A stretch of DNA of 64,000 nucleotides from a virus. Of the stretch, positions 1,952 to 19,810 are shown piece by piece. Below the pieces are notes generated by a model, which was not told where the DNA came from, searched no databases, and saw nothing but the letters and a program-made list of their open reading frames with translations. Each line of letters begins with the position of its first letter. Within the stretch, counting starts at the first letter, position 1. A program made the translations under genes and the position numbers. The stretch lies in IMG/VR virus record IMGVR_UViG_3300044568_002742, positions 7,068-71,067 of that record; one strand, 5' to 3'.

Positions 1952-1986
1952 CTTGACAACTGCCAAGGATGGCGGTATAATGTCAA

Positions 1987-2065
1987 GATGGAAAACACTT
2001 GCTAGGATGGCATGTTGGCAGTCAATGCATATCCAGTAATTTCAAAGGTAGGTTGGTTGTTATTT
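1987..2065 (+). ncRNA. Candidate small RNA, copy A of five-copy family
   Basis: Own promoter 1953-1981; TGC-TAGGATG-GCA hairpin; core TCCAGTAATTTCAAAGGTA 2032-2050. Confidence 0.55.
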
Positions 2066-2147
2066 GACATAAATGCGAAGCAAGTTGGTCTGGCCATATA
2101 TGTCTTCCCTTGGCGGGCTTCACTTCTAATCCTTAGATGATGTGTCT

Positions 2148-2175
2148 ATTATACAGCATAGTTTATTCATGTCAA
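2148..2175 (-). promoter_or_regulatory. Minus-strand sigma70 promoter convergent on ncRNA copy A
   Basis: Reverse complement reads TTGACA-16-TATAAT followed by the same ACACATCATC leader as plus-strand promoters. Confidence 0.7.
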
Positions 2176-2256
2176 TAGGTAGAATAAAATAAAATAAAGT
2201 TGACAAGATGTTTTGATGTGTTATACTATGTACAACTTAAACGAAGTGGAGCAAGA

Positions 2257-2460
2257 ATGATGGAAGATGATAGATTTACACCTTCAGATTATATGTCTAA
2301 TGCGGAGTATATGGCTGAAGCATTATTTCAGTATGCTAGTGTATATGGTGAAGAGCGTCAAGATGAGGAATGGATATCTTCCCCATATGATACTTGGGAG
2401 AAAAACCCGCATTATAGAGGATTGCCAGGACGTCATCCAGAAGAAGATTACGACGAATAA
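2257..2460 (+). CDS. Hypothetical acidic protein
   Basis: GGAGCA RBS, promoter at ~2200. Confidence 0.7.
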   Translation: MMEDDRFTPSDYMSNAEYMAEALFQYASVYGEERQDEEWISSPYDTWEKNPHYRGLPGRHPEEDYDE

Positions 2461-2519
2461 AAGATTGACAACAATGGCTAGTAGGTGATATACTAGCCAT
2501 TCACTCATTGGAGCATATC

Positions 2520-2774
2520 ATGGAATTAAAACAATTCAAACAAGAACTTAAAGCACTAGGTTTTAAGGTATCTATCAAGTCACAATCATATGGTCGTCAT
2601 GCAACATATATTCATAAAGGAATGGATGAAGCATTGACCTTTAATGTATTCACGCCAGAGCGTCTTAAACGATGGACACCATTACGGGAATGGCAAACTG
2701 CTAATCAAGTACGACTTGGGGTATTACGTCAAAGAGAACAAATTCATGGATTATGTAATCTAGTAATCAATTAA
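2520..2774 (+). CDS. Hypothetical protein
   Basis: GGAGCA RBS, promoter 2465. Confidence 0.7.
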   Translation: MELKQFKQELKALGFKVSIKSQSYGRHATYIHKGMDEALTFNVFTPERLKRWTPLREWQTANQVRLGVLRQREQIHGLCNLVIN

Positions 2775-2833
2775 TACTTGACAACTGGTTAGTATTACCC
2801 TATACTAGCCAGAACATTCATTAGGAGCAGAAT

Positions 2834-3211
2834 ATGAGAGATTACACTACCTTATTGGAAACCACACGTGACCAGTTTGACATCGTTGTAGATAAGGCAT
2901 ACGAGGATGGTATTCATCCAAGAGATTGTTTTGATGATAGCATTGATCCAGAAACCAATAAGCCATACTTTGACATTGATCAGATGTGTAGAGATATTGA
3001 TGATGGTGACTTGGATTGGTTTTTCTTACGCACACGAGTATTCTATAAAGGTGTAGAACTTGCCGAAGAATTCTTAGGTGGATGCATGTATAAAGATGCC
3101 ATTGATGTATTGACAGATGGTACAGCGGAGGATCAAATTGAGCAAGCATTATATTCAGCAAAAAATGAAGCAAAGATATTAAAAGATATGTTTGCTTCTT
3201 TGGAAGTTTAA
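2834..3211 (+). CDS. Hypothetical acidic protein
   Basis: AGGAGCA RBS, own promoter. Confidence 0.75.
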   Translation: MRDYTTLLETTRDQFDIVVDKAYEDGIHPRDCFDDSIDPETNKPYFDIDQMCRDIDDGDLDWFFLRTRVFYKGVELAEEFLGGCMYKDAIDVLTDGTAEDQIEQALYSAKNEAKILKDMFASLEV

Positions 3212-3245
3212 TGTTATACTAGCCATTCACTTTTAGGAGCAGAAC

Positions 3246-3434
3246 ATGAATGAGAACGAAGTCCTTAAACAATGTCAAGCATATGCATTAGGTTATCACG
3301 ATGGATTGACCTATGGCAATGAAGAAACCAGAGATACCATTGATGATCCTTACCGTCATTATTATAAGATTGGTTATGAACGTGGCGTGAGTGATTATTG
3401 TGACGAAGCACATCCCGAAGATACTTTCAACTAG
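3246..3434 (+). CDS. Hypothetical protein
   Basis: AGGAGCA RBS. Confidence 0.65.
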   Translation: MNENEVLKQCQAYALGYHDGLTYGNEETRDTIDDPYRHYYKIGYERGVSDYCDEAHPEDTFN

Positions 3435-3445
3435 GAGAAGACATT

Positions 3446-3961
3446 ATGCCAAATTGGTGCCAGAACTATGTAACCTTAACACATGAAGACCCAGCGATGA
3501 TTGAAAAAGCATTGGGGGCATTCAGGAAAGGTGATTTCTTCAAAGAACTTGTTCCCAGACCAGAAGAGGAAGAAGAGAATTGGTATTCTTGGAACATTGA
3601 TAATTGGGGTACCAAATGGGATGTTGGTGATGAAGATGGTGTAGGCGATGATATGGATGAGAATATGTTATCATTACATTTTGATAGTGCGTGGTCGCCA
3701 CCTATTGCCGGATATGAGAAGTTAGAAGAACTAGGTTTTACAGTTGAGGGTTATTACTGTGAGGAAGGAATTGGATTTTGCGGATTGTATGCTTGTGGTC
3801 TTGATGATTGCTATGATATAGAGGGCGATTCCAAATGGGTAGTTGAGAACATCCCAAAAGAGATCGACGAGATGTTTGCAATATCTGAGAATATGGATAT
3901 GTGGGAACAAGATCAAGCCGAAGAAGAACTTAGAAATAAATCAACTAACGAAGAACAATAA
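3446..3961 (+). CDS. DUF1281/YubB(Api92)-like protein
   Basis: MPNWCxN, WY.W...NWGTKWD, FDSAWSPP, E.G.GFCG motifs. Confidence 0.7.
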   Translation: MPNWCQNYVTLTHEDPAMIEKALGAFRKGDFFKELVPRPEEEEENWYSWNIDNWGTKWDVGDEDGVGDDMDENMLSLHFDSAWSPPIAGYEKLEELGFTVEGYYCEEGIGFCGLYACGLDDCYDIEGDSKWVVENIPKEIDEMFAISENMDMWEQDQAEEELRNKSTNEEQ

Positions 3962-4018
3962 GTTGACAAGTGGCTAGTATTACCCTATACTAGCCAGAAC
4001 ATTCACTTGGAGCATATC

Positions 4019-4279
4019 ATGAAAAACTTAAACACCTATATTGTACAACAAAACTTTTGGAGAGGTTATGCCAACTTACCATTGTTTGATATCAAGAACT
4101 TATCCGCCAGTGATGTAACTGAACTGGCTGATGCATTAAGTAGCAACTTATCACCAGAGAACTTACATTGTGATGGTGAGATCACCATTACCGAAGCACG
4201 CGCCAAGTATGCGTATTACCTTAAGGTAATCCGTGAATTGGAAAAAGTAGGACATCACTTCACTATTACTGATCTTTAA
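4019..4279 (+). CDS. Hypothetical phage protein
   Basis: GGAGCA RBS; LSPENLHCDGE motif. Confidence 0.7.
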   Translation: MKNLNTYIVQQNFWRGYANLPLFDIKNLSASDVTELADALSSNLSPENLHCDGEITITEARAKYAYYLKVIRELEKVGHHFTITDL

Positions 4280-4337
4280 TACTTGACAGATCTGGCTGGT
4301 ATGTTATACTAGCCAGAACATTCATTAGGAGCAGAAC

Positions 4338-4622
4338 ATGTACAAGAAAGAAATGTTAAAGTTATTAAAGGCTAATGTTGGCAAGGGTGTAAGTTTCTAC
4401 CTTGGTAGCACTTATATGTCCCCGTATAAGGACAACTGGTATATCCTACCATTCACCAATGATGATTTACTCAGGGTAGTTTCACTTGACAGCGATAAAA
4501 AAGCATGGGTTACTGATCCAGATACCGTTATTACTGATACGACATTCAAGCCAAAAAACATAATGACATTCTCTATTACTCATTTTAGAATTGATCAATT
4601 AGTTGGTGTAACTATTTTTTAA
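4338..4622 (+). CDS. Hypothetical protein
   Basis: AGGAGCA RBS, own promoter. Confidence 0.7.
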   Translation: MYKKEMLKLLKANVGKGVSFYLGSTYMSPYKDNWYILPFTNDDLLRVVSLDSDKKAWVTDPDTVITDTTFKPKNIMTFSITHFRIDQLVGVTIF

Positions 4623-4649
4623 TAACTAGCCAATTGGGGGCATCACATC

Positions 4650-4904
4650 ATGGCATTATGTAAAGTAGCAAAAGAACATTACAATCTCTTACAAGCAATG
4701 AAGTATCAATGGGAGAATCCGCCAGCGGGTTTTAATTCCCAATATGATGCCGTCAAGGCAGAGAAGCATAAACGAGTTGAGAAGTTAGTCAAGGCTGGTT
4801 TAGATGCTTATCATTCAACCTTGAAGCGAGTTGGTATGGACGAGTATTATGATTTGATGGATGCTCGTGAAAAAGAGTTGCGATTACTATATAGTGGGGT
4901 ATAA
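4650..4904 (+). CDS. Hypothetical protein
   Basis: GGGGGCA RBS; ORF track. Confidence 0.65.
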   Translation: MALCKVAKEHYNLLQAMKYQWENPPAGFNSQYDAVKAEKHKRVEKLVKAGLDAYHSTLKRVGMDEYYDLMDAREKELRLLYSGV

Positions 4905-4905
4905 T

Positions 4906-5067
4906 ATGTTAAAACGATATATGGTAGTGTTAGAATTACGGGTAGAGGATGAAGAAGCCATTGACTTTACTTGGTTGGAGGAAGTCATTGGTGAACATCT
5001 TACTGAGGGTGGTGGTGAACACGTTAAGGTATCATGGCACAAGCCATATATCGAAGAAATATGTTGA
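4906..5067 (+). CDS. Small hypothetical protein
   Basis: Starts just after the upstream stop; acidic composition like its neighbours. Confidence 0.55.
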   Translation: MLKRYMVVLELRVEDEEAIDFTWLEEVIGEHLTEGGGEHVKVSWHKPYIEEIC

Positions 5068-5122
5068 CATCATCTTTTAATCTGTTATAATAATCACAAC
5101 TTAAACGTAATTGGAGATCAAC

Positions 5123-5500
5123 ATGGGATATAGAAGCGAAGTAGCAATCAAGGTATATGGTAAGGAAGAAAACATGGTAGGCTTTAAGAAAGCCTATGAT
5201 GAGGCACTTGCCCAACTACCCGAGGTGGAACAAGGTTACATTGATGATTTGATGCGTGATAATGAGAGAAACGGGTTTGATGATAATGTTTTTACCTTTC
5301 ATGCCGATTATATAAAGTGGTATGTAGGCTATGACTATGTTGGTGTAAATTTCTTCATGGGCTTATTAGAACTTGTTGATGACTTGGGAGTTAATTCTGA
5401 GTTCGTGCGAATTGGTGAGGAGTATGATGACGTTGAAACAGACTATCGAGGTGATTGTGAATATATTCTTGGTGTAACTAGAATGATAGATGGAATTTAA
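5123..5500 (+). CDS. Hypothetical phage protein
   Basis: GGAG RBS; MGYRSEV...FVRIGEE.DD.E motif. Confidence 0.7.
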   Translation: MGYRSEVAIKVYGKEENMVGFKKAYDEALAQLPEVEQGYIDDLMRDNERNGFDDNVFTFHADYIKWYVGYDYVGVNFFMGLLELVDDLGVNSEFVRIGEEYDDVETDYRGDCEYILGVTRMIDGI

Positions 5501-5518
5501 ATATTATTAAGGAATGAC

Positions 5519-6286
5519 ATGCTATTTATTTTTAAAAAGAAGACAATCGTATTAGATTGTATAACATCAAACTTGGGTATATTTAACTATTACCCGATAG
5601 TTAAATCTAGCACAAATTTGCCTACTTGGTGGAAGAATTTACCTGAAAGTTTTGTATGTGGTAGAACACCAGAATTTGACAAATTAGATAGACATTCATC
5701 AACGATGAAAAAGTGTTCAGGGTTTATTGATTTGCATAAAAACAGTATTGTCATTCCATCAAATTGTGATGTAAAGATACAAACAACCGAGAGTGGAATA
5801 TTTGGATATCAATTTTCAGATTCAAGTGGAATGGAAAACTTTTCTATTGATTCGCATTCCCGTGAAGAATTTGGTAGTGAACTTGATCATCTTATACATT
5901 TAAAGATAATATCCCCGTGGTTATTATTTGAAAAAACAGGTATTAACTTTCATGTATGTATGCCATTTTGGCATCATATTAAAACATTAGATAAAGTCTT
6001 TATACCGCCCGGCATAGTCAATTATAAATATCAGCACACATCACATATCAATATGTTTGTGCCAAGAGCCGATGACCTAATTGAATTCACTGCTGGAACA
6101 CCGTTATTACACCTCATACCATTGACGGAACGTAAGGTAGAAGTCAAGAACCATATAGTTGATGATGCTGAGTTTTTAAAATTACACAAACATGCTGGAT
6201 TACGATCAAGATTTTTAAACTCATATATGTTACAAAAGAAAATTTTAAAAGCAAGCAATAAATGTCCTTTTAATTTTAAAAATTGA
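5519..6286 (+). CDS. Hypothetical phage protein (TMKKCxGF, GTPL, C-terminal CPF)
   Basis: 255-aa ORF; lacks the GGAGCA RBS and is more K/F/I-rich than its neighbours. Confidence 0.7.
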   Translation: MLFIFKKKTIVLDCITSNLGIFNYYPIVKSSTNLPTWWKNLPESFVCGRTPEFDKLDRHSSTMKKCSGFIDLHKNSIVIPSNCDVKIQTTESGIFGYQFSDSSGMENFSIDSHSREEFGSELDHLIHLKIISPWLLFEKTGINFHVCMPFWHHIKTLDKVFIPPGIVNYKYQHTSHINMFVPRADDLIEFTAGTPLLHLIPLTERKVEVKNHIVDDAEFLKLHKHAGLRSRFLNSYMLQKKILKASNKCPFNFKN

Positions 6287-6341
6287 TTGACAAGTGGTTG
6301 GTATTACCGTATACTAGCCATTCACTTTTAGGAGCAATGAT

Positions 6342-6539
6342 ATGACAAGTTACAATCACGGGTTTGATGTATGTTTCGATATAGAAACAAGCAAAGAAGT
6401 AGAACGGATTACCAATCGAGAATTAATAATAGCATTGGAATCCAGAATACGAAGATTACGAGCTGAGTTTATTGATGCCGATACCTTAGATAGTCCAGCG
6501 AGTGATTGCTTTGGTTATATGGATTCATATGAGGTATAA
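6342..6539 (+). CDS. Hypothetical protein
   Basis: AGGAGCA RBS, own promoter. Confidence 0.65.
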   Translation: MTSYNHGFDVCFDIETSKEVERITNRELIIALESRIRRLRAEFIDADTLDSPASDCFGYMDSYEV

Positions 6540-6686
6540 TGATGGCAACTTATAAGATTACCCAAATGGTTGAAGAATTGTATTATATCGAGGCTGATTC
6601 AGAAGATGATGCCCTTGAAATATTATACGCTGGTGTTGATGAACCTACTCAATATGGTTCAATGAATATAACTGATATAACTTTAT

Positions 6687-6965
6687 GTGGAGCAGATGAT
6701 GAATGATATAGAATTAGTTAAAAGAATGGCACAAGACGCTAGTGTAATTATATATGATGGGATTGGCTATCAGGTATGTAATTGTGATTTTGATGATAGC
6801 AATTTACTTGACGATGATGAAGAAATGGGCATGACTGTATTAGATGAAGAAACCCAAGATAGTATGTTCATCGCCTATAGTGAAGTTGATTTAGAACGTG
6901 ATATGTTTTATAAGTTAGTAGTGATGGACGAGAATGAGTATAAAGTAGTTGACACAGTAGAATAA
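6687..6965 (+). CDS. Hypothetical acidic protein (likely start 6696/6699)
   Basis: GGAGCA RBS. Confidence 0.65.
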   Translation: MEQMMNDIELVKRMAQDASVIIYDGIGYQVCNCDFDDSNLLDDDEEMGMTVLDEETQDSMFIAYSEVDLERDMFYKLVVMDENEYKVVDTVE

Positions 6966-7004
6966 TCCCAGTATAATAACCTGTAACTTAACTAGGAGCA
7001 GACA

Positions 7005-7307
7005 ATGAATGAACCAATAGGTGCAAATGTCAAAATCAAATGGTTGGATGAAACATTCCATCCAGAACATGAAGTTGAAACATATTGGGTACACTTCTCA
7101 TTCAGTGAAGAACCAGACTTCTCTGAATGTACTGGGGAGGAAGTAGACCAACATGGAGTTCATGACTGGGATATATTCTATTATGTCGCTAATGAGAAAG
7201 AATTAGAAGACCTGATGAATGATGATCCGTATGATGGTTATGTGATATTGGATTACAAATTAGTTTATAGCATTGAAGAAATGTTAATTAATAAAAGAAA
7301 TTCTTGA
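7005..7307 (+). CDS. Hypothetical acidic protein
   Basis: AGGAGCA RBS, own promoter. Confidence 0.7.
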   Translation: MNEPIGANVKIKWLDETFHPEHEVETYWVHFSFSEEPDFSECTGEEVDQHGVHDWDIFYYVANEKELEDLMNDDPYDGYVILDYKLVYSIEEMLINKRNS

Positions 7308-7358
7308 CAAATGTGTCTGGTATGTTATACTAGACACAACATCAACTAGGAGCAGAAC

Positions 7359-7589
7359 ATGAATACCGATATAGCAGATTTTGTAGATGTCCTTGCCAGT
7401 AATCTAGATTATAATGGCTCATTATCATTAGCCGAGCGGGATATGGCAGTAACCAAGTTATTACAACATTGGGCGAAACAGATTGATTATGATGACTTAT
7501 TAGATTATTATATATCTGGTCAAGAAAATTACTTGACAGAGCTACCAGATAGTGAGATAATAGAAACCGTAAAGGAAGAACTCCTTTAA
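7359..7589 (+). CDS. Hypothetical protein
   Basis: GGAGCA RBS, own promoter. Confidence 0.7.
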   Translation: MNTDIADFVDVLASNLDYNGSLSLAERDMAVTKLLQHWAKQIDYDDLLDYYISGQENYLTELPDSEIIETVKEELL

Positions 7590-7735
7590 CCGATTATTAC
7601 TGTAAGGGACGATGCCTAAGAGGATGACCGTATATTTTGGGGTGGGTCAGCATCAATGAACCCCATTAGGGCAAGTCGCATTTTTGAATGGACACACTAT
7701 ATTTTTTTGGGTGTAGCCTTGCCAATATTAAGATT

Positions 7736-7772
7736 AGGATATAATAGAAACTACTATTATATCCTTTTTTTT
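7736..7772 (+). terminator. Intrinsic terminator
   Basis: AGGATATAATAG-6nt-CTATTATATCCT followed by a T run. Confidence 0.8.
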
Positions 7773-7843
7773 GTTTAAAATAAAGTTTGACAAACCTATT
7801 CAATATGTTATACTAATCACAACTTAAACGAGGAGCAAATCAA

Positions 7844-8137
7844 ATGAATGAATTAACTTATACTATCATCAATGGTCAATGGGACAAAATTCAAATGTCA
7901 AGTGGTCGTGGATCGGTACTGACTACCTATGATAAACTGGTAGAATTATTTGGCGAACCTGAAATAACCAATTGCGGTAAGACTCAGGTAGAATGGGATA
8001 TTGAATGGAGTGATGGCACAATATCGACTATCTATGATTGGAAATGCTATGGTGAAGAACCAGAAGAAATAACCGAATGGAACATTGGTGGCTTTGATGG
8101 CAACTCATTATACTATGTTGAAGAACTGCTAAAATAA
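7844..8137 (+). CDS. Hypothetical phage protein
   Basis: AGGAGCA RBS; L...FGEP, K..VEW, TIYDWK, W.IGG motifs. Confidence 0.75.
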   Translation: MNELTYTIINGQWDKIQMSSGRGSVLTTYDKLVELFGEPEITNCGKTQVEWDIEWSDGTISTIYDWKCYGEEPEEITEWNIGGFDGNSLYYVEELLK

Positions 8138-8196
8138 ATTTGACAAATGTGTCTGGTATGTTATACTAGACTGACTTTAACAAAGGAGCAAATAAA

Positions 8197-8496
8197 ATGG
8201 CAATAGATTACCGAGTAACAGTATTCATCCCAGACGAAGTTCTACACCATTATTGGGAAGATGGATTAAAGACTGGATTGGAAATGCTATCATTTGAAGG
8301 CGACATAGAAGATGTTTATTGTGGTAACTGGGTAGTTGAGTTTGATGCGTACAATAAAGCCGTCAATGCGGAAATCGAACTGGAAGCATTAGTTGAACGA
8401 TATACGTTATCATATAAACGATTGACTTCCGCGAAGGAAATGACCATTGCGGAGATTGAAGAAAAGTTAGGACATCCAATCAAGATAGTAAAATAA
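8197..8496 (+). CDS. Hypothetical protein
   Basis: AGGAGCA RBS; C-terminal EMTIAEIEEKLGHPIKIVK. Confidence 0.7.
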   Translation: MAIDYRVTVFIPDEVLHHYWEDGLKTGLEMLSFEGDIEDVYCGNWVVEFDAYNKAVNAEIELEALVERYTLSYKRLTSAKEMTIAEIEEKLGHPIKIVK

Positions 8497-8555
8497 ATTT
8501 GACAAGTGGTTATTATTCCATTATAATAACCACAACATCAACCGAGGAGCAAATC

Positions 8556-8708
8556 ATGGAATTAACATATAGTACAACATTGTACTTTGAAGTACCAGAA
8601 GAATATACCCCAGATGAATATATAAGATTCTTGGAAAAATTCCCAAGAATGGATATGGTTAGTTTTGCAACTGATGTCGGTGATGGTGGATGGGGAGTAG
8701 AAGAATGA
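8556..8708 (+). CDS. Small hypothetical protein
   Basis: GAGGAGCA RBS, promoter 8499. Confidence 0.6.
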   Translation: MELTYSTTLYFEVPEEYTPDEYIRFLEKFPRMDMVSFATDVGDGGWGVEE

Positions 8709-8754
8709 ATACAATAGATTTAAAATTATCATTATCAACAAAGGAGCAAAGATC

Positions 8755-8949
8755 ATGAGTTGTTTTTTCGGTATCACTAAGGCGAAGAAAGAAGCATTCA
8801 TTAAAGCATATATGAACACAACCGCGCGGGTAAGTGAAGAAGAATTGCGGGAGTTCTTTTATGACCACAATACAGTAGCAGAAGCAGATCATATTATGGA
8901 CTGTTGGTTGCTATGGTGTGATGGATTTGAACATAACGGGGTGGTATAA
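8755..8949 (+). CDS. Hypothetical protein
   Basis: AGGAGCA RBS. Confidence 0.65.
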   Translation: MSCFFGITKAKKEAFIKAYMNTTARVSEEELREFFYDHNTVAEADHIMDCWLLWCDGFEHNGVV

Positions 8950-9499
8950 TGAAAAAGATTAATTTAGAGATGAGTTTAGAACAGTTCTTATCATTAAAGG
9001 CATTGCTCTTATATGTATTGGATAACGAGCAGGACAGTTATGATGAGTATGTAGAGGAATGTGGTGATATGGGTAACCATATCTACTCATATGCCTTATC
9101 GGTAGCAGAAGCCCTTAAATAAAATTGGAGTACAACATGATTGACTTAACCAAGCTGGAACATCTAGTAGAAGAAATCACCGATATGTCAGCCGACCAAC
9201 TTTGGGATTTGGCTAAGTTGTTAAACCGAGCCAGTCCTGTTAATGCCAATATATTAAAAGCAGACCTTGACTTTGTTGAATCAATGTAATATAATAATCA
9301 CACATTAACACATTGGAGCAAGCAAATGAACATATATGAAATAACATTATCCAATAGATTGAATGAAGATGAGTTTGTTCTTTCAATCGGTACTGCGGTA
9401 GATGAGGAAACAGCAATCAAAGAATGCTTAGAAACATTTACCTTTCATGATATCGAATCTATCAATATCATTCCAGAAGAATTCTACTAGGAGCAAGAC

Positions 9500-10120: not shown

Positions 10121-10650
10121 AGAGAGAGTTGACATAATCAATATGAGCCATTATAATGGCTCATCAACAAATAGGAGCAAAATCACATGATAGTAGCAAT
10201 AACGGTATTATTTCTCGGTAGCGTCGTATTTGGTTATCTTTTAGCGAGGTGGTTATAATGTATCAAGTTCATTACCATAATGGCATCATCTCATTTCATA
10301 CAACCTTGGATAATGCAAAACTACTAGCACGCAAAGAACAAATAGATTACCAGATAATCGATACGGGGATAAATGAAATAATATGGGATATCAATGATGA
10401 TATCTTGGAACATCTCGAAAGTACTTGATTTATATAAAGATTAAATTAAAACGCGTTTAAACAGCATTATAATTACCACTACCCTTGGTGGTACCAAGGG
10501 TAAGGTATTTTAAGTGTTGAAAAAGTGAAAAAGTCTCTTATAAGCTATTGATTTATAAGAGGTGAAAACTAAGTTTTTTTCTGTAGAATAAAGCTTGACA
10601 GGATGTTTTAATGTGTTATAATAACTCATCATCACAACTAGGAGCAATAT

Positions 10651-11099: not shown

Positions 11100-11151
11100 C
11101 AGGATGTTTTAATGTGTTATAATAGTCCTAACTTAAACGAAGGAGCATAAC

Positions 11152-12421: not shown

Positions 12422-12433
12422 AACCCCCCCCCA

Positions 12434-12609
12434 GAGGCGCAAGCCTCAATAATAGATAAGTGAGTAGGATTGCTCCCTGAAAACTTATCCAATAAAGTAT
12501 TGAATAGGAAGGATTGCTCCCCTGATAATTCATTACTCCTGAGGACATTGTCCTCATTAACAAGCCCTAATATCGACGGTTGCTCCCCTAGATATCAGGG
12601 CTTTTTTTT
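12434..12609 (+). ncRNA. Structured 3'-UTR/small RNA with three TTGCTCC (anti-GGAGCAA) loops, ending in an intrinsic terminator
   Basis: Five consecutive hairpins; TTGCTCC at 12470, 12514, 12580; AAGCCCT/AGGGCTT stem followed by T8. Confidence 0.65.
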
Positions 12610-12679
12610 GTTTAGGCTATTGACAAAGTAATCCAATCAAGTATAATAGACACATCATCAACACCTTGGAGCAAATACC

Positions 12680-13354
12680 ATGACAATAGTTAAAGCAAAG
12701 TTAGTCCTCGACATTACCTATGATACCACAGAATTACAGGAAGATGGTGCGGATTTAGTTAAAGGACATTTAGAAGCATTGATGGATACTATATCTGGCG
12801 ATGGCGATTTATCAGGTTATAATGATATGACAGTTGAGGAATGGTCGGTAAAGGTTGCCACTCATGAAATCAAAACCCGTATCACCTATGATGAATTTGA
12901 AGAAAAGTATCAACCGATTAAGAATCATTTAGATGATAACGCATCCTATGATGGGGTTATGTATGAAACCTTTGGTGATGAAGTCCAATATATTTTATCA
13001 CTAGCTAATGACGAACATCATAAAGAAAGAGTATGGACAGTCATTGGTGATTGTAATGCCACAGTGGTAGTATCGGGTTATCATTTGGTCAATAGACTTG
13101 GTTATATTATCACCAGTAAGCCATTAGAGCAAGACTACATGGAGGTATATGACCCAGACTTAATCAAAGCAGTAGGCGATGAAGTATATTGGGAAGATTG
13201 CGACAATGATGAATCTTCTGGTTATTACACCATAGCGAAAATTAAAACACCAAGTGGTAAATTGACTGGTACTAGCGATGACGATGATACCATCATTCTA
13301 TTAACTAATGAAGATGGTGCTGAAACCGAAGTATGCTATTACGAAATATCTTAA
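12680..13354 (+). CDS. Hypothetical acidic protein
   Basis: GGAGCA RBS; YETFG.E...VWT...GYHLVNRLGY motif. Confidence 0.75.
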   Translation: MTIVKAKLVLDITYDTTELQEDGADLVKGHLEALMDTISGDGDLSGYNDMTVEEWSVKVATHEIKTRITYDEFEEKYQPIKNHLDDNASYDGVMYETFGDEVQYILSLANDEHHKERVWTVIGDCNATVVVSGYHLVNRLGYIITSKPLEQDYMEVYDPDLIKAVGDEVYWEDCDNDESSGYYTIAKIKTPSGKLTGTSDDDDTIILLTNEDGAETEVCYYEIS

Positions 13355-13440
13355 CAATGCTAGCTGTATCATAGGCGTATAATGCTTGACATGCTGGGTA
13401 GTATCATGTATACTACCCAGAACAAATGAAGGAAAAGACA

Positions 13441-13602
13441 ATGCAGGAATATGACGTAACATTAAGAGAGTATCACGAGGGTAGATGGTTGGATGAAATT
13501 GTATTTGAATGTTCAGCCGATGACCACGCACATGCTCAAGAACAAGCAGAGAATGCCTACCCAGATTGTATAGTGATGAGAGTAGAATTATATGAACAGT
13601 AA
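13441..13602 (+). CDS. Small hypothetical protein (MQEYDVTL..., 53 aa)
   Basis: Hand-translated; promoter at 13386, AGGA RBS. Confidence 0.55.
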   Translation: MQEYDVTLREYHEGRWLDEIVFECSADDHAHAQEQAENAYPDCIVMRVELYEQ

Positions 13603-13755
13603 CGGACATTATATCAGCACTCATGCGAGGGCTATTGCCCCGATGAATGAAATAAAACATGAAACAGATGTAATGATATACACGATCATAATTGCAATCT
13701 TTATATCAATCATAATCAGCTGTGTGAATGATATCAGTAATTCAATAGAAAAGCT

Positions 13756-14301
13756 ATGGAAAAATTAGAAAGAGATACCCCCGAGCTATTAATCACCATA
13801 GATAATTTTTTATCCAAGAGTGATAACAAAATAATAACTGATGCCTTTTTAGCACAGAGTGGATTAAGGTGGACTGATAATGATATCAATAATGTCAATA
13901 AAGAAAAAGATTTGGTTACATCTAAAATTTTAAATGAAGTTAATAAGCATTTTAGTTTAGAGAACATGGTAGGATATGAAGGCTGGGCTAGATGGAATAA
14001 TAGTATTCCGGATTGGCATTATGATGTAGATGAACATGTGTGGTTTCATGACAAAATAATGAAAACACCTATATGTAGTATTGTCTACTATGGTGTGATT
14101 AAAGATTTAGTTGGTGGTGAATTCGTTTCAGAAACACATAGCATAAAACCTAAAGAAAATATGTTATTGATATTTGCACCAAAAATATACCATAAGGTAA
14201 ATCAATATACTGGTGAACGTATGGGTATTGCCATTAACCCATGGGCATTCAAACCCGCTGATTACGTTATACAACCCAGCAGAACCAGAGCTATTTTTTA
14301 A
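13756..14301 (+). CDS. 2OG-Fe(II) oxygenase
   Basis: WHYD (HxD), GGEF, LIF...YHKV, R.GIAIN. Confidence 0.75.
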   Translation: MEKLERDTPELLITIDNFLSKSDNKIITDAFLAQSGLRWTDNDINNVNKEKDLVTSKILNEVNKHFSLENMVGYEGWARWNNSIPDWHYDVDEHVWFHDKIMKTPICSIVYYGVIKDLVGGEFVSETHSIKPKENMLLIFAPKIYHKVNQYTGERMGIAINPWAFKPADYVIQPSRTRAIF

Positions 14302-14329
14302 CTTGACTTACTGAAGCAGACATGACATA

Positions 14330-14635
14330 ATGTCTGACAACACACTTGCTAGCTGTATATATGGGAGGGGAAGAATGAAATCATGTCCAATGTTGGAAAA
14401 AGCCTATCAGGCAGAATATTACAAGAATAATATCGAGAAGATTAAAGAACAACGTAGACAATATTACCAGAATAACAAAGCTGCATTTGCTGCCAGAGGG
14501 AGGGCATCACGCGCTGCCAACCCAGAACTAACCAAACTGGTAGATAGATTGATTTATGAAAGAACACGCGAGGATAAGATTGCCAGATCAAAAGCACGTT
14601 ATTGGAAATTGAAGAAAGAAAGAGAAGAAGCATAA
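14330..14635 (+). CDS. Basic helical hypothetical protein (likely start 14375)
   Basis: YY..N.EKI repeats. Confidence 0.55.
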   Translation: MSDNTLASCIYGRGRMKSCPMLEKAYQAEYYKNNIEKIKEQRRQYYQNNKAAFAARGRASRAANPELTKLVDRLIYERTREDKIARSKARYWKLKKEREEA

Positions 14636-14799
14636 TGTATATTTTATTAATAGCACTATATAGTGGTGAGGTACTTCACACCTATCACGATACCTCCCAG
14701 GAATGTGAACGGGCATTATACCAGGCGATTGATGAGGGCAGGAGAAAAAAGATAGCGGATATTAAATGTTTTGATGCCAAAACTTACTATCAGGATTGA
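14635..14799 (+). CDS. Small hypothetical protein
   Basis: TAATG coupling with the upstream ORF. Confidence 0.5.
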   Translation: MYILLIALYSGEVLHTYHDTSQECERALYQAIDEGRRKKIADIKCFDAKTYYQD

Positions 14800-15056
14800 C
14801 TATGATACGCGCAGGTTCCCAAATGAAATGGCACTTAGCAGAAACCCCACCACCATTAGAGATTGAAGAATTCAATCGAATGGAATCAATACCAGTATTG
14901 GCATACTTGGGCAATAGCGTAGGTGCTGTAATGACAGTGGTTAAGTATAGCAGATATACCGACGAGGAAGAAGGATGTTGGATTGATAATGGAAGCGAGG
15001 CATGGGATGTATCGGGTGTTATAACACATTGGCAATTTTTACCACCGACTCCTTGA
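14796..15056 (+). CDS. DUF551-like protein
   Basis: W....TPP N-terminus and ITHWQFLPPTP C-terminus. Confidence 0.65.
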   Translation: MTMIRAGSQMKWHLAETPPPLEIEEFNRMESIPVLAYLGNSVGAVMTVVKYSRYTDEEEGCWIDNGSEAWDVSGVITHWQFLPPTP

Positions 15057-15110
15057 CATCTATGACTATTGTGTTATACTAGACACAACTTAACACCAAC
15101 GGAGCAAATC

Positions 15111-15344
15111 ATGGAATCACCAACTATCAAATACCCAGCAAATGGCACGGCTTATAAATTACTCAATGGTGTGTTGATGTTCGCACCATTAGATAATGAT
15201 AATGTCATCATTGAGGCATTTGGGGAAGAAGATTGGGGCGAGGTTGACTTTGACCGATTATCTACCGTGGATAGCCTATATCCCAAACAAGCCTTATTTG
15301 TTCTCAAAACCACTATGGAGATGAATGATTATTTGTTGAAATAA
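15111..15344 (+). CDS. Hypothetical protein
   Basis: GGAGCA RBS. Confidence 0.65.
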   Translation: MESPTIKYPANGTAYKLLNGVLMFAPLDNDNVIIEAFGEEDWGEVDFDRLSTVDSLYPKQALFVLKTTMEMNDYLLK

Positions 15345-15409
15345 GTGCTTGACTTAGTCCACGGATGGACTATAATAGACACAACATCAACACCAACGGA
15401 GCAAACATC

Positions 15410-15601
15410 ATGATATTATCTACACCAGAACAAATCAACAAATTCCAATTACTAACTTTGAAGTCAGCATTAAAGTTAGAAGTTTTGGGAATGGCAAGAC
15501 GAGGAAAATCAGCCAATACAATGGCTTGCCAATTACTAGGATTACCAAAGGGAACAAAAAAAGAAATAACCCTAGCAAAGTTAATTGAATATATCGGATA
15601 A
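15410..15601 (+). CDS. Hypothetical basic protein
   Basis: GGAGCA RBS; ALKLE..GM.R motif. Confidence 0.7.
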   Translation: MILSTPEQINKFQLLTLKSALKLEVLGMARRGKSANTMACQLLGLPKGTKKEITLAKLIEYIG

Positions 15602-15641
15602 AAGGTATTGACAAGGGCAAGGATGCCCTGTATAATTACAT

Positions 15642-15723
15642 CATCAAATCACAGGGAAGCAATGGCAGGAAGCCATGTCGGCAGTCGATGCGTATCCAGT
15701 AGTTTCAAAGGTAGGTCGTCTTT
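15642..15723 (+). ncRNA. Candidate small RNA, copy B
   Basis: Promoter 15608-15636; ATGGC-AGGAA-GCCAT hairpin; core 15695-15713; no GGAGCA-led ORF. Confidence 0.6.
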
Positions 15724-15803
15724 AAAAAATAATAAAAAATAAAGTTGACAAGTAGTAATTACCTGTTATAATAATCACAACATCAACACCAACGGAGCAA
15801 ATC

Positions 15804-16019
15804 ATGTTAGATTTAGTAAACGCAGTAAGACGTCATGCAATGGCAAATTATGACGTAGATGGCTGGGACTATTTGGTAGAGTGCTATGACGATGGCGACA
15901 TCATTGAAATTATATCAGATGCTGAAGCAACAACCGTGCCAGAAGCAATAAAGGCAGTTCATAAAGAAGTAAAATTCCAAGATGATTATCGAAAAGAAAT
16001 TCAATCAACCGAGTTTTAA
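15804..16019 (+). CDS. Hypothetical protein
   Basis: GGAGCA RBS, own promoter. Confidence 0.7.
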   Translation: MLDLVNAVRRHAMANYDVDGWDYLVECYDDGDIIEIISDAEATTVPEAIKAVHKEVKFQDDYRKEIQSTEF

Positions 16020-16082
16020 TTACTTGACATAACACAGGGACGTGTTATAATAATCACAACATCAACACCAACGGAGCAAATC

Positions 16083-16337
16083 ATGGCTTATCTAGCTAAA
16101 GTTCAATCAAGTATTTCTGGTATCCCTTGCTTAATAGGGGTAATGACATACGCCAATGTAAAACCTTGGAAGGGCTCAGCTCATTCTTGCCCATCAGACC
16201 TTGATTATTATGGTTACTGTGAGATGGAATATGACGTTTTAGACCGTAAAGGTTATATGGCAAATTGGTTATCCAAAAAAATTACCGATTATGATATAGA
16301 GCGAATCGAGGAAGCCGTACATAATCATTTTAATTAA
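16083..16337 (+). CDS. Hypothetical protein
   Basis: GGAGCA RBS; DYYGY...LDR.GY...WL motif. Confidence 0.7.
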   Translation: MAYLAKVQSSISGIPCLIGVMTYANVKPWKGSAHSCPSDLDYYGYCEMEYDVLDRKGYMANWLSKKITDYDIERIEEAVHNHFN

Positions 16338-16398
16338 CCTATTGACAAGGGCAACGGATTGCCCTATAATATCAGCTTACCAACTAGGAGCAACCAAA

Positions 16399-16560
16399 AT
16401 GAAAGATTTTATCGCATTCTACAAAGAAAAACAAATCGTAGTTCAAGCCAATTCCTCATATGAGGCACAAGAAACGGCTGCAAAGCTATTCAGGGCAAAG
16501 AAGTCCTATGAGGTATCTGTATTCTTAGCTGATAAAGCCGTCAATACCGCAAGTATATAA
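16399..16560 (+). CDS. Small hypothetical protein
   Basis: AGGAGCAACC RBS. Confidence 0.6.
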   Translation: MKDFIAFYKEKQIVVQANSSYEAQETAAKLFRAKKSYEVSVFLADKAVNTASI

Positions 16561-16600
16561 AATAAACTTGACAATGCACATGGACGTGTTATACTAGACA

Positions 16601-16682
16601 CATCAAATCAGGAAAGACATGCTAGGATGGCATGACGTCGTAACAACGAGAGTCCAGCAATTTCAAAGGTAGCTTGTCTTTT
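16601..16682 (+). ncRNA. Candidate small RNA, copy C
   Basis: Promoter 16568-16595; CATGC-TAGGATG-GCATG hairpin; core 16653-16671; ends AAAGACA/TGTCTTT can pair. Confidence 0.6.
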
Positions 16683-16984
16683 AAAAAATAAAAAAAATAA
16701 AGTTGACAAAGTATTTAATTCAAGTATAATAACATCATACCAACTAGGAGCAAATCATGAAAAAGAAATTCTTTGTACATTATACCGATCTTATGTGTGA
16801 TCAAGCATGCATTGCTGAAGTTTATGCGTATGATATCGAAGACGTAATGGAAGACTTCGACTACTCAGCTATACAGGTTGATTATATTAATACCGAAGCC
16901 GAGGAACAAGAAGAAAAATAAAATTGACAAGTGGTTATTATTCCATTATAATAATCACAACATCAACACTTTGGAGCAAATCGT

Positions 16985-17185
16985 ATGACTAGATACAAAC
17001 AGAATTGGTTTGAAACCTTGAATTCCGCATTAGAATCTGAAGGTCTGGTAGACTTATGGCCTCTTGGTACCAATGTATCATACGGGGAAAATGTCCGCTT
17101 TACGACCGAGTGTGGCAAGCACATCTCAGTATATCGCGAAAATGATGGCCGATACGAAAGGCCAATCCACTATAAGGTAAAATAA
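16985..17185 (+). CDS. Hypothetical protein
   Basis: GGAGCA RBS. Confidence 0.7.
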   Translation: MTRYKQNWFETLNSALESEGLVDLWPLGTNVSYGENVRFTTECGKHISVYRENDGRYERPIHYKVK

Positions 17186-17246
17186 ACTTGACAATGCACA
17201 TGGACGTGCTATAATATAATCTCTTTCAAAGCAATCGGAGCAAACC

Positions 17247-17441
17247 ATGTTACAAGCAATCTACCCAACTAAGAAAGCGTTAAAAGAATCAATCGGCAAA
17301 CAATTAAATTACCGTGAAACATCTATGTTCGGCTTAGAGTTTACACCAAATGGTAAATTCTGCGTAGCTGATGGAAGCCAAGCTAGAAAATGGTTTGCTG
17401 AAGTATGGATGGAAAATGGATTAATCGCTAAAGTAAAATAA
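17247..17441 (+). CDS. Hypothetical protein
   Basis: GGAGCA RBS; YPTKKALKE.IG..L.Y.ETSMFG motif. Confidence 0.7.
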   Translation: MLQAIYPTKKALKESIGKQLNYRETSMFGLEFTPNGKFCVADGSQARKWFAEVWMENGLIAKVK

Positions 17442-17597
17442 ACTTGACATAGCACATGGACGTGCTATAATGGTACATCATCAAAACTTTGGAGCAAACC
17501 ATGACAGTTATGCAAATGAACACCATAATACATCTTGTTGGATTGGCGATAATCGCAATCGCAATCATAGTACATAAATTCTGCTAGGAGGTAATAT

Positions 17598-17789
17598 ATG
17601 ATGGATGACGAGGAATATCTCAACGCTGGCGGAAATATCTGCCCATTTTGTAACAGTATAGAAATTCAAGAAGTTGGTAGCACCAACATCGAAGATGGTG
17701 TAGGCTGGCAGTTAATTGAATGTCTGGATTGCGATAAAGAATGGATCGACACCTATGCCTTAACTGGTTTTGTATTACCCCACTGCTAG
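17598..17789 (+). CDS. Small zinc-ribbon protein
   Basis: CPFC...CLDC..W; similar to 340-558; AGGAGG RBS. Confidence 0.7.
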   Translation: MMDDEEYLNAGGNICPFCNSIEIQEVGSTNIEDGVGWQLIECLDCDKEWIDTYALTGFVLPHC

Positions 17790-17803
17790 GAGATAATAAG
17801 AAC

Positions 17804-18031
17804 ATGGATACAAAAAAAGAAGAGGTTAGAGTATTACTTTACCCTGTTGATGACTATGACCGTGAACAGGCGGAAGACATGGAAAACAAGGCATACACTA
17901 TGGAAGAACTCAAAAGGGTATTGCCTGAAGATGTTATTAGTTATTCATTGGCGGACTTTATGAATGAGTGTAATGACCAAGAAATTGAATTAGAAGGTTA
18001 TTGGTTAAGCTATATTAGGGTAGAACTATGA
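17804..18031 (+). CDS. Hypothetical protein
   Basis: AGGAG RBS. Confidence 0.6.
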   Translation: MDTKKEEVRVLLYPVDDYDREQAEDMENKAYTMEELKRVLPEDVISYSLADFMNECNDQEIELEGYWLSYIRVEL

Positions 18032-18213
18032 ATGCACACTGCTAGGAGATAATATGCCAACATTAGAAGATCGATATAATAGCTATTGCCATTTTGCTGA
18101 ACAAATGGGCTGGTATGTTAAAACATTCGACGAATGGCTAGACAGCTAAAAAGATTGACAAGTGGTTATTAGCTGGTATAATGACACATCATCAACATCA
18201 ACGGAGCAAACAA

Positions 18214-18408
18214 ATGAAATTAACACCAGAGCAGGAATTATTTTTCGGCACAGAATTAGTAAGTCTATTGAACTTAAAGGAAAAGAATGGATTGTATAAA
18301 ACTGACTTTGGTGTAAAGACAGCCAAATCATTGGGAGCAATGATTGAAAGTTTATATCACGCTCATATAGCAGACAATAAAGAAACCCATATTAATTCAC
18401 AATTCTAG
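18214..18408 (+). CDS. Hypothetical protein
   Basis: GGAGCA RBS. Confidence 0.65.
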   Translation: MKLTPEQELFFGTELVSLLNLKEKNGLYKTDFGVKTAKSLGAMIESLYHAHIADNKETHINSQF

Positions 18409-18620
18409 TTGACATAGTACAAGGACGTGCTATAATAACTCATCATCAACGAAAGGGGAAAAGCAATGACTTATTATGACGTATGTTTTTGGGGCGGAAA
18501 TTACTACACCAGAGAAGTAAGACCACATTCTACCACAGTCTATATGGATACTGTAATATCATCACACGATGACCCCGACGAAGCTCAATTAGAAGCAGAT
18601 CGCCTTCAAGCAGAATTTGA

Positions 18621-18834
18621 AAACGACCCAGCAAATTGGGAGTAATACCATGCAAAAATACCTTATAGCATTGCCAATATTCAAAGGCGGGATAGGTTTT
18701 AACCACCCCACAATATTAGTTAGCGCTGTTAATAAAAGCGATGCCATAGCTATAGCAAGGCATTTAAAACCTGATTGTAATATAGGTGATGTCAAACAAG
18801 TCCATTACTAAAACGACCCAGCAAATTGGGAGTA
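18621..18834 (+). repeat. 25-bp direct repeat AAACGACCCAGCAAATTGGGAGTAA (18621-18645, 18810-18834)
   Basis: Exact match read in sequence. Confidence 0.85.
18650..18811 (+). CDS. Small hypothetical protein flanked by 25-bp direct repeats
   Basis: GGGAG RBS lies inside the upstream repeat. Confidence 0.6.
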   Translation: MQKYLIALPIFKGGIGFNHPTILVSAVNKSDAIAIARHLKPDCNIGDVKQVHY

Positions 18835-18875
18835 AAATAAATTTGACATAGCACAGGGACGTGCTATAATGTCAT

Positions 18876-18954
18876 CAAATCACAGGAAAGCAATGGCAGG
18901 AGGCCATGTCGGTAGTTAATACGTATCCAGTAGTTTCAAAGGTAACTCGTCTTT
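18876..18954 (+). ncRNA. Candidate small RNA, copy D
   Basis: Promoter 18843-18870; ATGGC-AGGAG-GCCAT hairpin; core 18926-18944. Confidence 0.6.
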
Positions 18955-19038
18955 AAAAAAATATAAAAAATAAATGTTGACAAGTAGTAATTACCTGTTA
19001 TAATAATCACAACATCTCAAAACGACTGGAGCAAGTCA

Positions 19039-19380
19039 ATGACCAAAGCTGAAATAATCGCATTATTGAACACTAATGACAAAGCTATCGCTAGAGCATT
19101 GGTGGTATTGAATGAAAGACAAACCGCAACAGAACAGCACTCAGGTGCTACCATCAACCAAAATGGCGAGGGCTTTACACCAGCCGATGCCTATATGGGT
19201 ACAAGTATGGCAAATGGCGTTATCAAGTATGGTAGATTGACCGAAAAGCAATTAGCATACTGGAGGCAACCAAACGCCAAAGGCACGCCACGTATCAACA
19301 AATACGCAGGTCAATTATTGGCTATCGCTCAGGCAAAGGCAAGATTGGCGATTGCCAATATGGAAAGAGAATTAGCATAA
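19039..19380 (+). CDS. Hypothetical phage protein
   Basis: RQT..EQ....T...NG.GF...DA motif; GGAGCA RBS. Confidence 0.75.
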   Translation: MTKAEIIALLNTNDKAIARALVVLNERQTATEQHSGATINQNGEGFTPADAYMGTSMANGVIKYGRLTEKQLAYWRQPNAKGTPRINKYAGQLLAIAQAKARLAIANMERELA

Positions 19381-19446
19381 TGGTATTGACAAGTGGCTAT
19401 TACCATGCGATAATAGCCACATCATCAACACATTGGAGCAAATCAA

Positions 19447-19698
19447 ATGGCTAGAATCAACACCCTAACAAGTATGGCTGAAAGTTTACAAATTGAATTA
19501 ATCTCACTAGAGGAAAAGTTCCTGCATAGAGCAATGAACTTAAACCCGCACTTACCAATGGGTGACGGTTTTAAAAACCAATGGATTGACGAGCGACAAG
19601 CCATTCGCGCTAAACGAGCAGAGCTAGACAAAGTAATCAAAGAAATCGATGACCTAAATGGCAATGACCAATATCGAGAAAAATATCTACATTTTTAG
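19447..19698 (+). CDS. Hypothetical coiled-coil protein
   Basis: GGAGCA RBS. Confidence 0.7.
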   Translation: MARINTLTSMAESLQIELISLEEKFLHRAMNLNPHLPMGDGFKNQWIDERQAIRAKRAELDKVIKEIDDLNGNDQYREKYLHF

Positions 19699-19731
19699 TT
19701 GACATAGCACAGGGACGTGCTATAATGTCAT

Positions 19732-19810
19732 CAAATCACAGGGAAGCAATGGCAGGAGGCCATGTCGGTAGTTAATACGTATCCAGTAGTTTCAAAGGTA
19801 ACTCGTCTTT
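19732..19810 (+). ncRNA. Candidate small RNA, copy E (near-identical to D)
   Basis: Promoter 19699-19726; core 19782-19800. Confidence 0.6.

Follow-up and report, generated by a model that had tools for sequence, protein, structure and literature searches.

A stretch of early genes in an uncultured virus (IMG/VR virus record IMGVR_UViG_3300044568_002742, 71,067 bp) carries five copies of a small structured element, here named RNA-A, which defines an RNA family that is absent from Rfam and shows real covariation. The copies stand behind strong promoters, share no conserved open reading frame (ORF) and are related to the end of an insertion sequence (IS). The stretch of DNA that was analysed, referred to below as the window, comprises 64 kb of the record (record positions 7,068-71,067). 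The portion of RNA-A that runs from its second hairpin to just past an invariant 19-nt core very probably descends from the right end of an IS encoding a DUF6399 protein, and it is quite possible, if short of probable, that phage small RNAs derived in this way pair with the transcripts of the IS transposase.

The core, TCCAGYARTTTCAAAGGTA, is matched five times in the window, on the + strand only (positions 2032, 15695, 16653, 18926 and 19782); shuffled sequence is expected to give 0.04 matches, and none of 100 shuffles reached five. The whole 71-kb record holds five forward matches, no reverse match and no match to the reversed control, with no further copy at up to two mismatches. Ahead of each copy lies a promoter of the form TTGACA-N16/17-TATAAT or TATACT, agreeing with the consensus at 11-12 of 12 positions, and the core follows 45-55 nt downstream. 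An ORF led by GGAGCA is absent at all five copies, the element standing in place of GGAGCA and the ATG start. An earlier note on this DNA had proposed such a promoter-driven family, with a GGA leader, a first hairpin (hairpin 1) with AGGA in its loop, a short hairpin 2 and then the core. This description holds for all five copies, and the coordinates given there agree to within ~8 nt with matches to R1, a covariance model built from RNA-A only. The copies and their promoters are as follows, together with RNA-B, the putative convergent partner of copy 1.

1953 to 1981, + strand: promoter of copy 1, TTGACA-17-TATAAT, 12 of 12 consensus positions.
1983 to 2068, + strand: RNA-A copy 1, long form; R1 score 83.2 bits, E 6.5e-19; core at 2032-2050.
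2069 to 2141 (approximate), - strand: putative RNA-B of copy 1; 5' hairpin with AAGGA loop, then CCC-GCCAA-GGG.
2148 to 2175, - strand: RNA-B promoter of copy 1, TTGACA-16-TATAAT; the sole 12/12 minus-strand promoter in 1-20000.
15608 to 15636, + strand: promoter of copy 2, 12/12.
15646 to 15731, + strand: RNA-A copy 2, short form; R1 score 92.7 bits; core at 15695-15713.
15661-15666 with 15672-15677, + strand: hairpin 1 of copy 2, loop AGGAA.
15681-15683 with 15689-15691, + strand: hairpin 2 of copy 2.
16568 to 16595, + strand: promoter of copy 3, TATACT at -10, 11/12.
16603 to 16689, + strand: RNA-A copy 3, short form with c3-type hairpins; R1 score 90.9 bits; core at 16653-16671; + frame stopped.
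18843 to 18870, + strand: promoter of copy 4, 12/12.
18877 to 18962, + strand: RNA-A copy 4, short form; R1 score 91.1 bits; core at 18926-18944.
19699 to 19726, + strand: promoter of copy 5, 12/12.
19733 to 19818, + strand: RNA-A copy 5, short form, near-identical to copy 4; R1 score 90.9 bits; core at 19782-19800.

At least 22 copies of RNA-A are known, on at least 14 contigs: the five in the window and 17 in related uncultured contigs. A scan of metagenome contigs for the core returned at least 118 loci; among the matches listed, 12 full-length copies on 10 contigs fitted a profile made from the five window copies, and the remaining core loci are chance matches. With one genome per species (185,579 genomes), 18 stretches match the core, three of which are true copies on a single 22-kb contig binned in a metagenome-assembled genome, G001, titled uncultured Methylococcaceae bacterium. 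A covariance-model search of G001 added two diverged copies on other contigs. Four G001 contigs (C62, C332, C164 and C344) carry RNA-A or RNA-B copies or window-like DNA (55 nt at 89% identity), and these related jumbo-phage fragments binned within G001 are a weak hint at the host, or else contamination of the bin. None of the 43 core stretches found in IMG/VR is element-like, and a neighbouring protein has no relative in that database. The Rfam comparison that had been suggested for the family gave no match at gathering score in the 64 kb; with E relaxed to 10 on the five loci, the elements were still free of overlapping matches. Mimicry of a CRISPR repeat was considered and dropped, as arrayed core matches are absent from the 185,579 species genomes.

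RNA-A is ~85 nt long and consists of an A-rich leader with GGA, hairpin 1, hairpin 2 and the invariant 19-nt segment. Both hairpins covary in an alignment of the 22 copies, which bears out the covariation first proposed from the window; this alignment was model-fitted and so leans towards the given structure, and an unfitted alignment gives the same picture. RNAalifold, applied to 17 copies, recovers hairpin 2 unaided, with double changes at all three pairs and none broken. Across the 22 copies each of these three pairs is intact in every case and each shows compensatory changes (GC 13, UA 7, CG 2; CG 17, UA 4, GC 1; AU 8, GC 7, UA 4, CG 3). For hairpin 1, 80% of cells are paired, and one base pair reads CG in nine copies, GC in six and AU in three. 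The covariation score is 0.417, compared with 0.157 in shuffles (0 of 500 reached the observed value) and at most 0.127 when the partners are slid. Hairpin 1 contains eight U-G pairs that on the other strand would become C-A mismatches, which points to the + strand as the structured one. Single-sequence folding energies are ordinary (z -0.02 to +0.54 for four copies; copy 3 has z -3.2).

Hairpin 2 is a 3-bp stem with a pentaloop that reads G-N-Y-R-A (GUCAA, GAUAA, GUUAA, GACAA, GUCGA) in the 16 copies that are not c3-type; the c3-type loop contains UAAC. The leader carries GGA in 19 of 20 copies, and the hairpin 1 loop carries AGGA in 18 of 20, that of L079 being AAGA. The AUG in the 3' arm of hairpin 1 appears to be the relic of a phage gene start. 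A third subtype of RNA-A (L120 4288-4373, G001:C332:779-875 and G001:C164:1830-1908) has a different 5' part and the hairpin 2 of RNA-B, CCC-GACAA-GGG, or UCC-GACAA-GGA with a compensatory change, followed by the core UCUAGCA(A/G)UUUCAAAGGUA. This suggests exchange between the A and B modules.

The origin of the core was sought in 61 genomes of the family to which G001 belongs, at up to three mismatches and with a reversed-pattern control. This host-genome search, proposed in the earlier note, singled out one genome: 60 stayed at control level, and G010, a single 2.97-Mb contig, gave 44 matches against 4 for the reversed control. Of the G010 matches, 38 are the identical sequence TCCAGCAATTTCAAAGGGT, scattered over both strands and matching the phage core over an unbroken 17 of 19 positions. 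TCCAGCAATTTCAAAGGGT occupies positions 24-40, counted from the right tip, of an element of ~1.7 kb bounded by 23-bp terminal inverted repeats, GGCTACCAA(T/C)TTAAGACGGGACA. The element has one ORF of 500 aa, on the strand opposite to TCCAGCAATTTCAAAGGGT and ending ...GELPLPRNSRKRVFSNPLKLLDVPS, which matches Pfam DUF6399 (9e-64) and no NCBIfam model. More than 2000 homologs of this ORF are found, among them two proteins source-named as Methylococcales, mostly on contigs of 1.7-2.3 kb, as would be expected if the repeat breaks assemblies. By these features the element is an insertion sequence; an example is locus L326 (1492-2994) in G010:C2, with its right tip near G010:C2:20002. In many of the G010 copies the reading frame is shortened (211-540 aa open), and DUF6399 has the look of a C-terminal domain belonging to a transposase family not yet described; no occurrence of the name turned up in a literature search.

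The likeness between phage element and IS is collinear, taking in the terminal repeat, the last transposase codons and an upstream GELP block. The shared 17 nt are the antisense of the last codons of the ORF, ...GELPLPRNSRKRVFS-NPLKLLD-VPS-stop, a tail kept across the family, and the phage copies read (G/D)-E-L-P-L-K-L-L-D on the minus strand. In the IS the block before the 17-mer is GGCGAGTTACC, matched at 11 of 11 positions in L174a and at 10 of 11 in copies 4 and 5, L110b and L075. This block adjoins the 17-mer in the phage and lies 39 nt (13 codons) from it in the IS, a difference in spacing that points to a clean in-frame deletion of 39 nt. Hairpin 2 aligns with the IS terminal repeat in compressed form (GGCAGTCAAT versus GGCTACCAAT; AGTTAATACG versus ATTTAAGACG), and in the L120a type CCAGTTAAAGAC aligns with CCAATTTAAGAC, the minus frame reading LLD-L-P where the IS has LLD-V-P. 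The chance of each flanking block is estimated, by our own arithmetic, at ~1e-3. The IS-derived part begins directly after ATGTC, so that RNA-A resembles the start of a phage early gene hit by an IS insertion. Intact IS terminal repeats are absent from the phage copies, where they are shortened and altered, and the phage record contains no DUF6399 gene. The G010 IS loci have 37.8% G+C and the phage 33-44%, a loose fit. R1 found no match in G010 among the 150 scored of 1175 candidates.

The phage copies vary within the shared segment in a restricted manner. The peptide L-P-L-K-L-L-D is kept in 21 of 22 copies: the variable sites (CTA/TTA, TTA/CTA/TTG/CTG, CTG/CTA and GAT/GAC) are synonymous with the single exception of GGT, and the two codons preceding LPLKLLD vary freely. 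Related IS alleles occur in 40 of 401 Methylococcales genomes, the reversed control in none, and they vary at the same sites, with TTG or TTA; GAT, GGT or AAT; and CCT, CCA or CCC. Synonymous-only variation in the phage allows two readings, selection to keep pairing with a protein-coding target whose own variation is only synonymous, or a translated minus-strand peptide. Some of the order-level matches to an IS 24-mer fall in a gene for a CusB-like periplasmic adaptor (L361-L372, e.g. L362 907-2319), which reads ...RLKLLDVP... and has 15 nt identical to the core complement; this is probably a chance cross-match through a similar peptide.

From the three core variants among the five window copies, a single target, 5'-UACCUUUGAAAUUGCUGGA-3', had been deduced, with G-U wobble preserving the pairing. 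A sequence of this kind exists, contiguous over 17 of 19 nt and in 38 copies in the Methylococcales genome G010, and the Y/R variants of the core all pair with the G010 allele if G-U is allowed. The further idea of the earlier note, that the target is a host defence RNA, was not borne out, the candidate target being the 3' end of an IS transposase gene. Its picture of structured, promoter-driven, putatively non-coding units with an invariant segment thus survives, with a different kind of target. The match between core and target is at least partly explained by descent, as the phage element itself is an IS-end fragment. No trans target was found in the 71-kb phage record, where the best non-self RNAduplex value was -20.4, compared with -17.2 to -23.2 for ten shuffled cores; RNAduplex of RNA-A against the IS 3' end was uninformative.

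Copy 1 and 12 related copies, 13 long forms in all, carry an extra downstream module of ~110 nt. The four other copies in the window, the short forms, consist of RNA-A without this module, and their A-rich 3' tract doubles as the upstream element of the next promoter. All 13 long forms have a minus-strand promoter on the far side of the module, conserved in its -35 and -10 and variable in its 16-nt spacer, so placed that the convergent promoters are ~190 bp apart. A module-B profile matches copy 1 at 2051-2200 (E 1e-28), aligned with the 12 other long forms; in IMG/VR, at least 114 stretches fit the module-B pattern and none of the matches listed fits the profile. The predicted RNA-B generally has a hairpin with an AAGGA loop followed by CCC-GACAA-GGG, and most long forms have a short hairpin and U-run between RNA-A and RNA-B. 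Of the 13 long forms, 11 have an R1 match on the opposite strand (E 3e-4 to 0.2), always tail to tail with RNA-A; copy 1 and L085 give no RNA-B match. The tail-to-tail arrangement is also seen in G001:C332, and the RNA-B of L129 carries a core-like UCCAGAUAUGUCAAAGGUA. On the strength of the opposite-strand matches, RNA-A and RNA-B, both putative RNAs, are convergent paralogs. Copy 1 appears to retain the ancestral long form; the earlier description had recognised its RNA-A element and missed the convergent partner. A type I toxin was considered and dropped, since the long forms have no conserved ORF despite their convergent promoters.

If the RNAs do act on the transposase transcripts, the following course can be envisaged. 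An IS would have inserted into the start of a phage early gene (promoter, leader, ribosome-binding site and ATG), and most of the IS would then have been lost. Very strong early promoters would let host RNA polymerase transcribe the single RNA-B gene along with the five RNA-A genes, giving a high dose. RNA-A would fold into hairpins 1 and 2, and ~17 + 11 (+8) nt, made up of the core and its adjacent blocks, would pair with the 3' end of the DUF6399 transposase mRNA. Pairing might trigger cleavage or yield a message without a stop codon, lowering the output of transposase or otherwise affecting IS transcripts. The replicating phage genome would in this manner be guarded from IS insertion, for example where a large, slowly replicating genome lies beside tens of IS copies.

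Several observations count against pairing in trans. The complementarity is explicable by homology alone, and the antisense RNAs known to control transposases target the 5' end rather than the 3' end. The match of the profile to the IS is marginal when taken by itself (nhmmer E 0.043 in a 6-Mb search space), and by our own arithmetic the probability of meeting a contiguous 17-mer anywhere in 61 genomes is ~0.2. An exact scan of the 185,579 species genomes found no IS allele matching 19 of 19 nt, only phage-like contigs and chance matches, and the sole DUF6399 copy in G001 has a diverged 3' end. Spacer-like matches to the window in five candidate genomes were not convincing (best 28 of 31 nt, E 0.004), and no RNA runs containing the region were listed. 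As to the RNA itself, hairpin 3, on the 3' side of the core, shows no covariation; the four short copies in the window lack a recognisable terminator, most long forms having a hairpin and U-run; and the core is not predicted to be especially open, its unpaired probability of 0.55 against 0.51 for the whole RNA being uninformative. A fuller version of the proposal, in which a domesticated fragment of a host transposon, amplified behind early promoters, silences a multi-copy IS while its variants track the synonymous alleles of the target, is doubtful.

The strongest competitor, in itself unlikely, is a cis-acting element on early transcripts, either a nut- or put-like antitermination site or a 5' stabiliser, with an arginine-rich phage protein on hairpin 2 and a host or phage factor on the core. 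RNA-A always lies directly behind an early promoter, and the short forms, being without a terminator, run into the next gene. The 3' tract of the short forms may resemble boxA. The G-N-Y-R-A loops of hairpin 2 include GACAA, the pentaloop of P22 boxB, which adopts a GNRA-like fold, and the c3-type loop contains UAAC, as does the hexaloop of phi21 boxB (in the available text of PMC12550061). However, the stem has just 3 bp, and behind every short form stands another full consensus promoter, which makes the downstream gene independent. In most long forms a hairpin with U-run and a convergent partner come directly after the RNA, and convincing terminators number only ~2 in 20 kb. No N-like protein has been identified, no protein search having been made, and a cis element leaves the IS homology and the synonymous-only variation unexplained.

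A role of the IS end as DNA, whether as decoys that bind transposase (target immunity) or as marks of recombination-prone promoter cassettes, is improbable. It would account for the homology to the IS right end with its compressed terminal repeat, and for contig joints between repeated promoters or copies in related populations (e.g. 15602 to 19699), although these joints, seen in short contigs assembled at repeats, may be artefactual. It does not account for two hairpins kept by compensatory changes, with strand-specific G-U pairs, or for the single orientation of all copies relative to the promoter. Moreover, the best-conserved part is internal to the terminal repeat, and the repeat itself is the most altered.

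More improbable still is that the element has no function and is left over from one old IS insertion, spread by hitch-hiking with promoter cassettes as these were duplicated. This agrees with the IS-derived origin, and the region is indeed made of many near-identical promoter cassettes, but the core is invariant or varies only synonymously while the flanks differ by 25-30%, and two hairpins are maintained by compensatory changes over 22 copies on at least 14 contigs. This reading, like that of a peptide product, fits less well than antisense pairing.

A small protein as the product has a very low probability. It could be a + strand peptide, M..YPV(V/I)SKV.., or one from the minus strand whose GELPLKLLD ending imitates the tail of the transposase. 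The 16-codon + frame, named in the earlier note as the product that would speak against a non-coding RNA, can be read from an in-frame ATG in 16 of the 22 copies; on the minus strand 21 of 22 copies retain LPLKLLD, with variation that is synonymous only, and some long forms have an AAGGA-AUG start for that frame. Against this, the + frame is closed in six copies, namely five well-conserved c3-type copies (copy 3, L093, L120b, L075 and L110b) and L174a, which has lost its start codon. Its N-termini are of three unrelated kinds (M-S/L-x-x-x-x-YPV, MPDKGGLA and MARRRNNESPA) and its ends vary. The compensatory changes in hairpin 2 cross codons, tying the third codon to the fifth and sixth, a linkage due to RNA pairing that a peptide does not explain. 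Taken together, the closed frames, the differing ends and this linkage make a conserved + strand peptide unlikely. Of 11 long forms examined, 5 have the minus frame closed, no minus-strand frame is common to all long forms, and the short forms have neither a promoter nor a start for it.

Just as remote is a sponge that titrates CsrA/RsmA or another GGA-loop binder: GGA in the leader (19/20) and AGGA in the hairpin 1 loop (18/20), further GGA motifs in RNA-B and an early-promoter class with covarying palindromes around a GGA centre speak for it, but there are ~2 GGA motifs per RNA, both explicable as relics of ribosome-binding sites, compared with the many of CsrB/RsmZ, the L079 loop is AAGA, GGA-loop hairpins are not enriched (78 observed; shuffle mean 65.7, maximum 81), and hairpin 2 and the invariant core are left unexplained.

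Among the genes of the window are those for a tail tube, helicases, virion proteins and a tail sheath of 1085 aa that shares 41-43% identity with its counterparts in Agrobacterium phage Atu_ph07 and Pseudomonas phage PA5oct; by this gene content and sheath likeness it is a piece of the genome of an uncultured freshwater or lake jumbo myovirus. The completeness of the record is ~20% (CheckV). No close cultured relative was found among 50,697 phage records (megablast and blastn), and the window has no tRNAs. Positions 1-22000 form an early-gene array of small + strand ORFs, each with its own consensus sigma-70 promoter, a leader of ~28 nt and a GGAGCA ribosome-binding site. Within 1-20000, promoters with 12/12 consensus positions number 28 on the + strand and one on the minus strand; near-consensus sigma-70 promoters within 1-22000 number ~55, about one per small ORF, with almost uniform leaders.

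One class of early promoter contains an inverted repeat between the -35 and the -10, with a conserved centre A-N-GGA-C/T. Its members lie at 1953, 15349, 15608, 16024, 16342, 17188, 17444, 18409 and 18843, and further at 19699, 20013, 20532, 21505 and 21770. The arms of the palindrome covary (GCAC/GTGC, GGGCA/TGCCC, GTCCA/TGGAC, GGGCAA/TTGCCC and GCCA/TGGC), with other arms in relatives, and the remaining promoter classes have different spacers (GCTAGCTG; GGTTATTATTCC). Convincing intrinsic terminators in the array number only about two, + 7736-7765 and + 10480-10502. The first of these, a 12-bp hairpin with a T-run, lies ~200 nt downstream of a promoter at 7533 (TTGACA-17-GATAAT) that has no ORF behind it, and 7533-7800 may be another small RNA unit. 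Contigs from four lake-water DNA runs break at, or join across, the repeated promoters and RNA-A copies. The joints include 15602/19699 (from just before the copy 2 promoter to the copy 5 promoter), 18152/18955, 8757/17442, 7827/11156 and others, and could be strain-level loss of cassettes through recombination or an assembly artefact at repeats.

If antisense pairing holds, RNA-A would be the first phage-encoded RNA aimed at a host transposable element that our searches have turned up. Phages, like eukaryotic genomes, would then turn captured transposon fragments into antisense guards, with a logic like that of piRNA clusters. The results also put forward Methylococcales methanotrophs as the candidate host lineage of an uncultured freshwater jumbo phage, and assign DUF6399 proteins to a high-copy insertion sequence with 23-bp terminal repeats. 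The finding combines known kinds, phage small RNAs and antisense control of transposases; should the mechanism be confirmed, there is a real chance that it goes beyond them. In the parts of the literature available to a search, only IS-encoded antisense RNAs against transposase messages were found, and no phage-encoded RNA aimed at a transposable element.

Among known systems, T4-type promoter-stem-loop cassettes are repeats of promoter and terminator without a conserved, covarying transcribed RNA. They share with the RNA-A array the repeated early-promoter units between small early genes and the signs of recombination. The par/Fst type I toxin-antitoxin system is a convergent RNA pair, and the long form resembles it in its convergent promoters with a hairpin and U-run between them, while having no conserved small hydrophobic ORF on either strand. 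In eukaryotic piRNA clusters, transposon fragments transcribed in antisense act on active copies. The likeness to RNA-A is one of analogy only, the kingdom and the machinery being different and no processing pathway being known here.

Lambdoid nut sites have a GNRA-like pentaloop hairpin just downstream of early promoters, as RNA-A may; hairpin 2 of RNA-A has a 3-bp stem where nut boxB has 5 bp, and a second promoter or a terminator follows the RNA-A element. Trans-acting small RNAs of phages and prophages likewise have their own promoter, a length of ~60-100 nt and a conserved pairing segment. RNA-A differs from the known ones in belonging to no Rfam family and in having no homolog in the 50,697 cultured-phage records. 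In the available text of a review of phage-derived small RNAs (PMC12197685), the terms 'transpos', 'insertion sequence' and 'jumbo' do not appear. The closest parallels are RNA-OUT of IS10, the ISPpu9 small RNAs and the IS200-derived RNAs, each, as RNA-A is predicted to be, a small, strongly expressed hairpin RNA complementary to a transposase mRNA; as far as the accessible parts of these sources go, they are encoded by the IS and act on the 5' end or the ribosome-binding site (PMC5006887, PMC8450116, PMC5435999). RNA-A, known from sequence alone, is in contrast phage-encoded, present in five copies, and complementary to the last codons and the terminal repeat.

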